64,000 bases of DNA from Escherichia coli. Its GTDB lineage: Bacteria; Pseudomonadota; Gammaproteobacteria; Enterobacterales; Enterobacteriaceae. Positions within the stretch are counted from its first letter, which is position 1. Every line of letters begins with the position of its first letter. This document shows, in pieces, positions 7,943 through 9,344 of this stretch. A model generated the notes under the pieces. The model had not been told where the DNA came from. It was given only the letters and a program-made list of their open reading frames with translations, and ran no database searches. The stretch lies in the NCBI RefSeq assembly GCF_003334255.1, contig NZ_QOWU01000004.1, one strand, 5' to 3'. Both the position numbers and the translations under genes were made by a program.

Positions 7943-8305
7943 TCAAACCTCTTCGTTAGCAGCCATCCATAATCCATAAAGGTTGGCCAGCAAATAGCCT
8001 TCTTCACACGGGTTAACTTCCAGTGCGAATTCCTTCAACAACACCTGATGCAATTGCACAACGGCTTGCCAGTGGCTGGATTGCGCCAGTTCTGCCAGCA
8101 ACTCGTTATCCAGCGGCTCTATTTCTTCACCACGGCGACTGCGCATCAGTGCACTCGCCATATGTGTCATCGCCATCGTTCCTTGCTCACTGCGCACCGG
8201 CAGATGGCACTCTGTTTCCAGTACGTTGACGACCTGCATCATGCCTTTGCAGATGTCCTTATCAATAACGCCTGCCTCGCAAAGCAGGTTGAGTCTGGTT
8301 TCCAT
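7943..8305 (-). CDS. yhfY: Small uncharacterized protein (PRD-like regulatory domain)
   Basis: ORF track 7943..8347 begins with GTG; internal ATG at 8303-8305 (METRLNLLCE...) gives the 120-aa product; helical composition. Confidence 0.75.
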   Translation of the reverse strand: METRLNLLCEAGVIDKDICKGMMQVVNVLETECHLPVRSEQGTMAMTHMASALMRSRRGEEIEPLDNELLAELAQSSHWQAVVQLHQVLLKEFALEVNPCEEGYLLANLYGLWMAANEEV

Positions 8306-8321
8306 ATCAGATGCCTTTCGT

Positions 8322-9227
8322 TTAATAACTCGGTTCCTGTTCCCCACTCACTACCCGTTGTTGATGGGCGAGCAGGGCGTGTTTATCTACAACGGCACGC
8401 AGCAGTTGTTGCATTGGGTAATCATCGACTCGCGTCAGGACCACGGCTTCGGTGGCCTGTAAAAATCGCGGATCGTCTGTGAGCGGCGTCGCCTCTAATC
8501 CCAGCATGGTCAGTTCGTTTTCCGCCACCACGTTCCAGATCACCGCATCGACATCGCCTTTAACAATGCGTTGTAAACTCTCGTGATAAGAGAGATCGAC
8601 TCGTTCCACATCACTACCGCCAAAAAAAACATCGGTCATGATTTTCTGATCCGCCGAACGGTTATCCAGCCCCACGCGCTTCACGTTTGCGGACTCGCCT
8701 TTACGGCAAATCAACTGGTGCTCGCCAACGTAGGTGTGCGGCCCCAACTCCAGCGCGAGGCATAAGCCTTTTTGCGTGAGATAACTTTCCGCCGCTAGTC
8801 GCGAAACCACCGCCATGTCATACACGCCATTAAGCAGACACTCCACGCGAATATCCGCGCCACGCATGTGCGCATAGTAAAAAGGAATGCCATCAAACTG
8901 GGCTTTCAATCCGCTCGCCAGGCCTTCGTACAAACGGGTATAGGGCAAGGGCATTGCACATACCACGTTGTTGATATCCACATGAGTCAGCAATGCTTTG
9001 TTATCCATCTCGACCAGATAACTGCCATTGCGCCCACGGCGTTCAATCCGTATCGCTCCGCTTGATTCCAGCGTTTTCAACGCGGCCTGCGTCAGGCCAA
9101 CGGATGAACGGCATTCATTTGCCAGCTCATCTATGGTTTTCAATCGATTACCGCACTTTTCACCCAACAAATAACGGGCCAGCGTCGTGATGACGACGCC
9201 TTCTTTTTTGATAAACGTTCGACGCAT
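8322..9227 (-). CDS. yhfZ: Putative transcriptional regulator (N-terminal HTH plus ligand-binding-like domain), first gene of the cluster
   Basis: 301-aa ORF; N-terminal HTH-like segment (LKTIDELANECRSSVGLTQAALKTLESSGAIRIERRGRNGSYLV). Confidence 0.85.
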   Translation of the reverse strand: MRRTFIKKEGVVITTLARYLLGEKCGNRLKTIDELANECRSSVGLTQAALKTLESSGAIRIERRGRNGSYLVEMDNKALLTHVDINNVVCAMPLPYTRLYEGLASGLKAQFDGIPFYYAHMRGADIRVECLLNGVYDMAVVSRLAAESYLTQKGLCLALELGPHTYVGEHQLICRKGESANVKRVGLDNRSADQKIMTDVFFGGSDVERVDLSYHESLQRIVKGDVDAVIWNVVAENELTMLGLEATPLTDDPRFLQATEAVVLTRVDDYPMQQLLRAVVDKHALLAHQQRVVSGEQEPSY

Positions 9228-9344
9228 AATAAATTTTCAGTAAATTGAATATTTATATCTTCAGGAATTTGAAGATAAGGCGCAACAGCGAGATGTGGAA
9301 ACGGCGAGGCACTTCACATTTTTTCGGATTATTGCAAATGAGGA

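Follow-up and report, generated by a model that had tools for sequence, protein, structure and literature searches.

Three conserved palindromes around the yhfZ-yhfY gene pair of Escherichia coli: a putative autorepressor and its PRD-like partner

How is the yhf gene cluster of Escherichia coli controlled, and what part do its first two genes, yhfZ and yhfY, play in that control? We addressed this question in a 64,000-nt stretch of E. coli DNA (contig NZ_QOWU01000004.1 of assembly GCF_003334255.1; the whole stretch is called the window), in which the region concerned is chromosomal and carries, on the minus strand, trpS and then yhfZ-yhfY-yhfX-yhfW-php-yhfU-yhfT-yhfS. The php-yhf cluster is conserved, and structures of Php and YhfZ have been solved; a literature search found nothing addressing its substrate or its regulation. 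An earlier note on the same DNA described yhfZ and yhfY as a regulatory pair with an insulated promoter upstream of yhfZ. It did not notice three palindromes, here called O1, O2 and O3, and a putative second control point lies outside the promoter that it proposed. From the sequence comparisons below we propose, with moderate confidence, that YhfZ would repress its own gene until released by a ligand and would, at O3, also gate yhfX and what follows it, with YhfY adding an input from the phosphotransferase system (PTS).

The three palindromes have the form ATMTTCA-N6-TGAAKAT and lie around yhfZ-yhfY:

O1: 9256-9277, minus strand; TATCTTCA-AATTCC-TGAAGATA, directly upstream of O2.
O2: 9230-9255, minus strand; TAAATATTCA-ATTTAC-TGAAAATTTA, ending 3 nt before the yhfZ ATG.
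O3: 7888-7913, minus strand; TAAATATTCA-AAAAAA-TGAATATTTA, a perfect 10+10 palindrome with a 6-nt spacer, returned by a repeat finder.

O3 sits within the 83-nt spacer between yhfY and yhfX, its core beginning 47-60 nt before the yhfX ATG (7859). O2 differs from the O3 pattern by one mismatch, and the centres of O1 and O2 are 24 bp apart. When pooled, the half-sites read T-W-W-A-T-(C/A)-T-T-C-A, and the 6-bp spacer after them is A/T-rich. In the 64 kb of the window the O3 pattern was matched twice, with 0.03 matches expected by chance, and three of the four occurrences of TTCA-N6-TGAA are O1, O2 and O3.

To compare the sites between species, we used orthologous loci fetched from ~38 enterobacterial species (the genera sampled were Escherichia, Citrobacter, Klebsiella, Pluralibacter, Trabulsiella, Cedecea, Buttiauxella, Lelliottia, Superficieibacter, Atlantibacter and Chimaeribacter); 39 of these loci, which are denoted by L numbers where they need to be told apart, contain the yhfY region. 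A scan of 655 kb of orthologous loci with the 20-mer motif, allowing up to two mismatches, returned O1 38 times, O2 37 times and O3 37 times, with 15 hits elsewhere. The spacing is fixed as well: the O1 core stands 46 nt before the yhfZ ATG in 33/39 loci by the strict pattern (38 by the two-mismatch scan), and the O2 core 22 nt before it in 37/39. O2 is absent from L025 and L031, where an ordinary Shine-Dalgarno sequence is in place. At least 90% conservation was seen in 25 of the 26 columns of O3 over 38 species, compared with ~30-50% in most flanking columns. Among 5426 complete E. coli genomes, O3 was found in 5075, at a median of one place per genome and at most 3, and most of these genomes hold no second near-identical copy. 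The palindromes are real and are specific to the yhf cluster.

In a few species a TTCA-N6-TGAA-like sequence, e.g. AGCTTCACGCCAATGAAGAG, was also seen inside the 3' part of yhfY (window 7965-8000; L017, L019, L021 and L031). Because it overlaps the conserved NEEGY codons, this dyad may be a by-product of coding constraint and not a fourth site.

Are these DNA sites or RNA structures? In E. coli the transcripts do fold: O3 RNA forms a 10-bp hairpin (-7.4 kcal/mol, z = -6.1) and O1 plus O2 form two adjacent hairpins (-12.8 kcal/mol, z = -3.2). Since RNA hairpins are the targets of BglG/LicT-class PRD proteins, the palindromes might be RNA elements that control translation, processing or attenuation and not DNA operators at all. 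The comparison between species makes this hardly credible. The right arm of O3 reads TGAT and not TGAA in 16/38 species, and the left arm shows no change that would compensate; the arms of O2 are symmetric and complementary at just 5-8 of 10 positions in most species; and the Buttiauxella O3 RNA (-4.1 kcal/mol, z = -0.6) folds no better than shuffled sequence. None of the palindromes gave an Rfam match, O1 lies at or upstream of the likely start site, and YhfY is a 120-aa single domain that lacks the CAT RNA-binding domain. A hairpin or riboswitch reading was rejected on the uncompensated arm changes, the poor folding outside Escherichia and the lack of an Rfam match. The pattern in the alignments is what one expects when degenerate half-sites are read by a dimeric protein.

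Which protein might read them? Of the proteins that the cluster encodes, YhfZ alone has a detected DNA-binding domain. Pfam assigned HTH_41 to its residues 24-71 (E = 1e-18) and YhfZ_C to residues 75-301 (E = 4e-84); with both domains present and 373.6 bits against the NCBIfam equivalog NF041241 (cut-off 260), the protein belongs to the YhfZ family. The crystal structure PDB 2OZZ covers residues 74-301. A model of YhfZ built from 56 homologues (pLDDT 91) has a winged helix-turn-helix (HTH) at residues ~8-74, with three helices and two strands, then a short helix and a two-lobed alpha/beta domain (75-301). After 2OZZ, its nearest structures are the full-length LysR-type regulators OxyR, CbnR, BenM and CcmR and the solute-binding proteins TauA, ProX, TAXI and THI5/NMT1; PF14503 is listed among solute-binding-protein profiles (PMC9602780). 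As modelled, YhfZ is a winged HTH joined to a periplasmic-binding-protein (PBP) type II domain. The N-terminal HTH and ligand-binding domain that the earlier note had proposed are both borne out by Pfam, by 2OZZ and by these structural neighbours.

Many homologues of yhfZ in the databases are annotated 11 residues shorter (290 aa). The near invariance of residues 1-10 (M-R-R-T-F-I-K-K-E-G) across genera supports ATG 9227 as the start. The E. coli gene has no recognisable Shine-Dalgarno sequence, as O2 ends so close to this ATG.

The YhfZ family makes up 668 clusters at 50% identity with E <= 1e-3. Homologues at ~30-47% identity come with palindromes of an equivalent kind, placed ahead of yhfZ or of the cluster's first gene and in many cases ahead of yhfY or yhfX; the loci that bear them (L042, L044, L045, L046, L047 and L049) include Firmicutes- and spirochaete-like contigs. 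L042 (47% identity) has AATCTTCA-TAAAAA-TGAATATT 16 nt before yhfZ, and the Desemzia locus (L044) has AATATACA-AAAAAA-TGTATATT before its first cluster gene. In L047 (31% identity), TTCA-W6-TGAA dyads precede yhfZ and yhfY. The Clostridium-like L045 carries TACA-W6-TGTA before yhfZ, yhfY and the yhfX homologue, the Parasphaerochaeta-like L046 carries TACG-W6-CGTA before yhfZ, and in L049 (8001-13332) three TAC(A/T)-N6-TGTA dyads flank a YhfZ-family gene of 30% identity. Operator core and the first residues of the recognition helix co-vary: proteins with SVGL[TI]Q have TTCA cores, those with [S/A/G]RGT[VI]Q have TACA or TACG. In L047 the core is of the TTCA type, even though the protein is overall nearer to the TACA group (37-39%, versus 31% to E. 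coli).

On this evidence, which is good if indirect, O1-O3 are very probably, if still putatively, YhfZ operators. It would be very improbable that a regulator encoded elsewhere binds them or that the cluster is expressed solely by read-through from trpS. For a foreign regulator one may point to the motif's distant likeness to the ATTCA/TGAAT half-sites of ARG boxes; against it, the motif accompanies the YhfZ family even in Firmicutes- and spirochaete-like genomes, and its core changes in step with the recognition helix. The ARG box, which we read as TGAAT-N4-ATTCA, also differs from the motif in orientation and spacing on our own reading. It was rejected together with other known E. coli operator types, as their half-site orientation and spacing do not fit.

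We then asked where transcription of the cluster could start. The features between trpS and yhfZ are:

trpS: 10521..9517, minus strand, from the list of open reading frames (ORFs).
Intrinsic terminator of the trpS operon: 9345..9370, minus strand; GAAACCGGGGAAACCCGGTTTT, hairpin 9370..9349 plus a T run.
CRP-like site: 9300..9321, minus strand; AAATGTGAAGTGCCTCGCCGTT, centre 9310.5.
Promoter candidate A: 9272..9300, minus strand; -35 TTCCAC (9300..9295), 17 nt, -10 TATCTT (9277..9272).
Promoter candidate B: 9257..9285, minus strand; -35 TTGCGC (9285..9280), 17 nt, -10 GAAGAT (9262..9257).
yhfZ: 9227..8322, minus strand; 301 aa, ATG start, stop TAA at 8324..8322.

The spacer between trpS and yhfZ is 289 nt on the minus strand of the window. 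Its terminator, a hairpin and T run 3' of the trpS end at 9517, is of the intrinsic type, with a stem of 9 pairs (5 GC), a loop of 4 and a T tail; the identical hairpin occurs in Escherichia and Citrobacter, and different hairpin plus T-run sequences occur in Cedecea and related genera. From the terminator to the yhfZ ATG there remain 117 nt (9228..9344) with 35% GC, compared with 52.8% for the window. The A/T-rich, terminator-bounded spacer described in the earlier note is just as it stated, and its coordinates for ORFs, spacer and terminator were borne out throughout. Over 38 loci, conservation starts sharply at a near-invariant TGTGA (9318..9314) and continues to the ATG, so the promoter space that it proposed does hold a conserved block; it is not the sole place of control if O3, between yhfY and yhfX, is a second one.

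A CRP-dependent promoter calls for a 22-bp site like AAATGTGA-N6-TCACATTT at an activating position. The conserved element upstream of O1 is TGTGA-N6-TCnC; its left half is perfect and present in at least 90% of 38 loci, and the element as it stands here, TGTGA-N6-TCGCC, is by its resemblance to the consensus a putative CRP site. A strict consensus scan of the 9228..9344 spacer found no promoter; a search weighted by conservation gave two candidates. Candidate A, with a predicted transcription start site (TSS) near 9265, is the best conserved hexamer pair over 36 species (mean 7.4-7.9/12; A2 and T6 of the -10 in 94%). Candidate B has a predicted TSS near 9250 and a mean of 7.1/12, with A2 and T6 of its -10 in 100% of species; it places the CRP-like site at ~-61, which would fit the class I position of a CRP promoter. 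O1 overlaps the -10 of both candidates and O2 falls within the leader, as is typical, by analogy, where a repressor acts by occlusion. For yhfZ, the ROSE supplement lists no TSS. A compendium of RNA-seq data, which defines units by gene boundaries, gives yhfS..yhfZ as one unit apart from trpS..aroK, in agreement with insulation by the terminator and a single eight-gene transcript. Taken as read from the DNA, an insulated promoter for the yhf operon is plausible.

Between trpS and the terminator there are also two inverted repeats of the REP/BIME type, with arms at 9409-9423/9449-9463 and 9454-9467/9470-9483, and a sub-threshold match to naRNA4 (RF02564) at this region (38 bits; gathering score 59.5). 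BIME/REP elements upstream of yhfZ were once flagged as possible attenuators of the gene (PMC2965389), and the repeats (9409-9483) explain both that flag and the naRNA4 match. The element is probably variable, as the trpS-yhfZ spacer is shorter in Escherichia sp. L002. The attenuator flag can be counted in favour of expression by trpS read-through. Against this stand the strong intrinsic terminator that precedes the conserved block, the TGTGA and promoter-like hexamers within the block, and the transcript assembly, which separates the trpS and yhf units.

Does O3 mark a second promoter or a gate within one operon? The gene behind it is:

yhfX: 7859..6696, minus strand; ATG at 7859.

No sigma-70 promoter was detected at O3: the consensus scan of the E. 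coli yhfY-yhfX spacer gave nothing, and the best pair from a conservation-weighted hexamer search around O3 had a mean of 6.8/12 and lacked A2 and T6, the key positions of the -10. The sequence upstream of O3 is unconserved. With no conserved -35/-10 pair around the site and no conservation upstream, the simplest reading of O3 is a high-affinity gate. An alternative is that there are two units, with O3 serving a separate promoter under YhfZ control (repressed, or activated in the manner of class II) and yhfZ-yhfY forming a short autoregulated operon. Many locally regulated operons have such a layout; O3 does lie in an intergenic spacer shortly before yhfX; L045 and L047 have a palindrome in the gap after yhfZ, and L045 another before the yhfX homologue; and the operon table quoted in PMC4448311 omits yhfZY. 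We consider it a serious alternative, though somewhat unlikely given the lack of a conserved hexamer pair, the empty consensus scan, the unconserved upstream sequence and an RNA-seq compendium in which the eight genes are one unit. The third dyad of L045 (12950-12971), directly before the yhfX homologue, mirrors E. coli O3 despite a different gene order.

The second gene of the pair raised a question of its own, as the earlier note had left its start undecided between a GTG and an ATG. The features are:

yhfY: 8305..7943, minus strand; 120 aa from the ATG (134 aa if from GTG 8347).
yhfY Shine-Dalgarno GAAAGG: 8314..8319, minus strand; 8 nt before ATG 8305 and 2 nt after the yhfZ stop.

The GTG at 8347 had been placed 22 nt after the yhfZ stop, which is wrong; it lies inside yhfZ, and an ORF from there overlaps yhfZ by 26 nt. 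ATG 8305 follows the yhfZ stop by 16 nt. All 39 orthologues align from Met1, with ATG as the start in 37 and GTG in two, and most orthologous loci have an AAGG/GAGG-type Shine-Dalgarno sequence at a similar spacing. GTG 8347 and its frame give a 14-codon extension that only E. coli and one near relative keep open; the ATG has a stop codon immediately before it in L003, L004, L005 and L026, other Escherichia being among the loci with such an in-frame stop. RefSeq annotates a 'PRD domain protein' of 363 nt, i.e. from the ATG, next to a 'GntR family transcriptional regulator YhfZ'. GTG 8347 was rejected as the start on the rarely open extension, the upstream stops, the alignment from Met1 and the Shine-Dalgarno spacing; the comparison settles the start as ATG 8305, in line with the 120-aa annotation. 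Translational coupling of yhfY to yhfZ stays plausible, since the Shine-Dalgarno sequence begins so soon after the yhfZ stop.

What kind of protein is YhfY? Its match to the Pfam PRD profile (PF00874) spans model positions 2-84 of 90 and is statistically weak (E = 1.3e-3, 19.5 bits). It falls short of the TIGR03582 (EF_0829/AHA_3910) family with 28.4 bits against a cut-off of 69.35, and matches PDB 3NUF by profile at E = 0.02. The AlphaFold model (pLDDT 93.6) has six helices and shows the all-helical PRD fold. The best sensible Foldseek matches are the PRDs of GlcT (PRD1, 3RIO, TM 0.61, probability 0.84) and LicT (1H99/6TWR/1TLV, TM 0.5-0.58), all with E > 1. The motif THMxxALMR contains His48 (H48; codon 8164..8162), a residue that does not vary among 37 orthologues or in distant homologues and that aligns with the histidine of 3NUF. 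At the second canonical PRD histidine E. coli has N108; Asn is also found in the enterobacteria, L042 and L047, and His is retained in Desemzia, the Clostridium-like L045, the Parasphaerochaeta-like L046 and L051. Homologues of YhfY in other phyla have a precomputed PRD match, either plain or marked 'weak'. We class YhfY as PRD-like: borderline by statistics, and supported by the model, by H48 and by the second histidine in homologues. The small helical PRD-like protein of the earlier note holds with the six-helix model added and with that statistical caveat.

The pairing of the two genes is plain. A PRD-like gene of 116-123 aa stands immediately 3' of yhfZ in all 39 enterobacterial loci, and, across phyla, the same adjacency is found in six distant yhf-type clusters (L042, Desemzia, Clostridium-like, Parasphaerochaeta-like, L047 and L051), which supports the regulatory pair that had been suggested from the window. 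In L046, which resembles Parasphaerochaeta coccoides, genes for HPr and Enzyme I directly follow the yhf-type cluster (14632-15845). In L049 a YhfZ-family gene lies beside a mannose-type PTS (EIIB-sorb, EIIC, EIID and EIIA-man), Amidohydro_2 and BtpA. That YhfY passes the phosphorylation status of the PTS to YhfZ in trans, via H48, is the best-supported inference, and a tentative one.

In the main rival view YhfY would work on the uptake side and not on YhfZ, either by regulating YhfT/YhfU or as the phosphocarrier of a non-canonical, PTS-like relay from HPr through H48 to the conserved cysteine of YhfU, with YhfT as permease. The protein concerned is encoded at:

yhfU: 4234-4584, minus strand; DUF2620.

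In YhfU a GAC(N/S)TGxGxA loop is invariant, its cysteine being conserved across phyla (including L044-L047). The loop resembles the Cys-Gly-rich loops by which some EIIB proteins of the PTS carry phosphoryl groups. This loop counts in favour of an uptake role, as do the gene order Z-Y-U-T in four distant clusters, by which yhfY also adjoins yhfU, the HPr and Enzyme I genes beside L046, and the cluster's own gene set, in which phosphomutase-like and phospho-lactonase-like enzymes occur with neither a kinase nor an EIIA. The role is nevertheless distinctly unlikely: yhfY adjoins yhfZ in every yhf-type cluster examined, but it does not always adjoin yhfU and stands apart from it in the enterobacteria and Desemzia. 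We also know of no PRD that acts as an EIIA-type carrier, which counts against it. A bolder combination, and a still more doubtful one, is that yhf is a non-canonical PTS branch in which HPr would phosphorylate YhfY at H48, YhfU would be an EIIB-like carrier and YhfT the permease, and the PRD would report transport to YhfZ at O1-O3. If true, the system would take up some amino-sugar- or lactone-type substrate and phosphorylate it, and would represent a split version of the fused PRD regulators together with a new family of PTS permeases.

Returning to the ligand-released autorepressor, we envisage the following. A dimeric YhfZ repressor would bind the 22-26-bp palindromes (T)WWATMTTCA-[6 bp, A/T-rich]-TGAAKATWW(A). 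At O1 and O2 it would cover the -10, the start site and the leader of a weak, probably CRP-dependent yhfZ promoter, and so limit its own synthesis. O3, the best-conserved site, would gate the structural genes yhfX-yhfW-php-yhfU-yhfT-yhfS, most likely as a roadblock to transcription from the yhfZ promoter or as a looping partner, with a loop of ~1.34 kb to O1/O2. A gate at this point would let the two regulator genes run at a basal level. A metabolite of the pathway, held in the PBP-like cleft, would release YhfZ from DNA. YhfY, made from ATG 8305 as a stand-alone PRD and receiving a phosphoryl group at H48 from HPr or an EIIB-like protein, would modulate YhfZ in trans and thereby bring in a signal of carbon status or transport. 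The trpS terminator would insulate the unit from upstream transcription.

Several observations weigh against this scheme. The roadblock at O3 depends on a promoter not having been found there, i.e. on negative evidence from a simple consensus model, and an older operon table (quoted in PMC4448311) gives php-yhfSTUWX as a unit without yhfZY. The hexamers upstream of yhfZ are weak, and candidates A and B fit about equally well. The right half of the CRP-like site, TCGCC (9307..9303), matches TCACA at 3/5 positions, a poor half, and under candidate A the site would be at ~-45, which is non-canonical for activation. The co-variation of operator core and helix is drawn from ~nine lineages, and L051 has no clear palindrome. 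The PRD assignment of YhfY is statistically weak, and the L049 locus has no PRD gene, so a regulator of the YhfZ family can do without a PRD partner. Our literature search returned no paper that characterises YhfZ, YhfY or the operator sites.

The wider locus is well preserved. Window positions 7800-9500 are 100% identical to many E. coli chromosomes and are present at >=80% coverage in 5076/5426 complete genomes; the region is missing from ~350 of the 5426 (MG1655 genome coordinates equal window coordinates plus 3,503,117). In all ~38 enterobacterial species the eight yhf genes are in identical order, usually downstream of trpS. As judged by sequence comparison, the eight-gene cluster and its spacer elements are kept in these species more than chance would allow. 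Distant clusters vary in order (Z-Y-X-W-php-U-T-S, U-T-php-S-Z-Y-X-W, Z-Y-U-T-...). The cluster encodes phosphomutase-like and phospho-lactonase-like enzymes, and three distant clusters (L044 3354-4400, L046 9006-10127 and L047 13362-14594) have an additional gene, not in E. coli, for a hydrolase of the amidase/beta-lactamase family. The extra gene hints at an amide bond in the substrate.

In L008, L009, L024 and L035 (~13700-15500 in each; some Citrobacter, Buttiauxella and Atlantibacter) the yhfU-yhfT pair is divergent, with 36-39% and 30-33% identity to E. coli, compared with 84-100% elsewhere. As the flanking enzymes remain orthologous, this suggests a swap of the transporter cassette. Certain strains show signs of decay or disruption of yhf genes. 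E. coli EM18-18-42 (NZ_CP063473.1) has an IS1 transposase within the yhfZ-yhfY region, Trabulsiella L018 has a gap inside yhfY, and yhfZ, yhfW, yhfT and yhfS are fragmentary in Citrobacter koseri NCTC10786. In L040, a Firmicutes metagenome-assembled genome, the yhfZ homologue is interrupted by a transposase and the locus gave no gene context; L050 held nothing informative on yhf context. The yhfZ of Yersinia pestis is reported to be truncated (PMC12445494).

The main value of the analysis is that a conserved orphan operon becomes a directly testable system. The operator triad and its probable repressor offer handles: loss of yhfZ or mutation of O3 should switch the operon on and expose its substrate. 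The ligand domain of YhfZ suits metabolite screening, and H48 of YhfY is a single-residue test of PTS input. For the regulator family there is a candidate specificity rule, VGL with TTCA and RGT with TACA or TACG. If a PRD does act in trans on a GntR-like/PBP-II repressor, control by PRDs would extend beyond fused antiterminators and activators, and such trans control would also extend into the Enterobacteriaceae, where BglG is the classical example. The gene annotations and the structure of the C-terminal part of YhfZ were already known; what is new is a separate, single-domain PRD beside a local repressor of LysR-/GntR-like build.

How does this arrangement compare with known systems? The LysR-type regulators OxyR, CbnR, BenM and CcmR share with YhfZ an N-terminal winged HTH and a PBP type II effector domain; they are usually autoregulated and bind A/T-rich dyads beside the genes that they control. 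YhfZ differs in having a GntR-like HTH (HTH_41 and not HTH_1) and an interdomain helix of ~6 residues in place of a long linker helix, and its putative operators are 10-6-10 palindromes, unlike the T-N11-A boxes of the LysR type. With no match to a LysR profile, the short helix and a fold-level likeness at ~11-15% identity, YhfZ is not of the LysR type; its architecture works like that of a LysR-type regulator without belonging to the family.

The GntR-superfamily repressors (FadR, HutC and AraR types) resemble YhfZ in the N-terminal winged HTH, with three helices and a two-strand wing, in palindromic operators and in probable autoregulation. NCBI NF041241 names YhfZ a GntR-family regulator. 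The Pfam GntR profile (PF00392) had no match in E. coli YhfZ and a faint one in the Desemzia homologue, and the model has the three-helix, two-strand winged HTH topology. AraR couples a GntR-type HTH to a periplasmic-binding-protein-like domain. Unlike the GntR subfamilies, YhfZ has an effector domain that is a PBP type II family of its own (YhfZ_C), and none of the classical subfamilies has a dedicated PRD partner.

With the PRD regulators (LicT/BglG/GlcT; MtlR/LicR/LevR/ManR; Mga/AtxA) YhfY shares the helical fold and the histidine motif ..tH...al.R. In those proteins the PRDs are fused, usually in pairs, to an RNA- or DNA-binding domain, whereas YhfY is single and free-standing; in the enterobacteria it has one of the two PRD histidines and no CAT, EIIA or EIIB domain. 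As a single 120-aa domain, beside palindromes that show no RNA co-variation and are followed by no terminator, it is not an antiterminator of the BglG/LicT type. The EF_0829/AHA_3910 proteins (TIGR03582; 3NUF) are themselves uncharacterised and offer no mechanism. They are nonetheless the best sequence matches and, like YhfY, are single PRDs of ~110-120 aa in conserved clusters; YhfY is a relative, and not a member, of that family.

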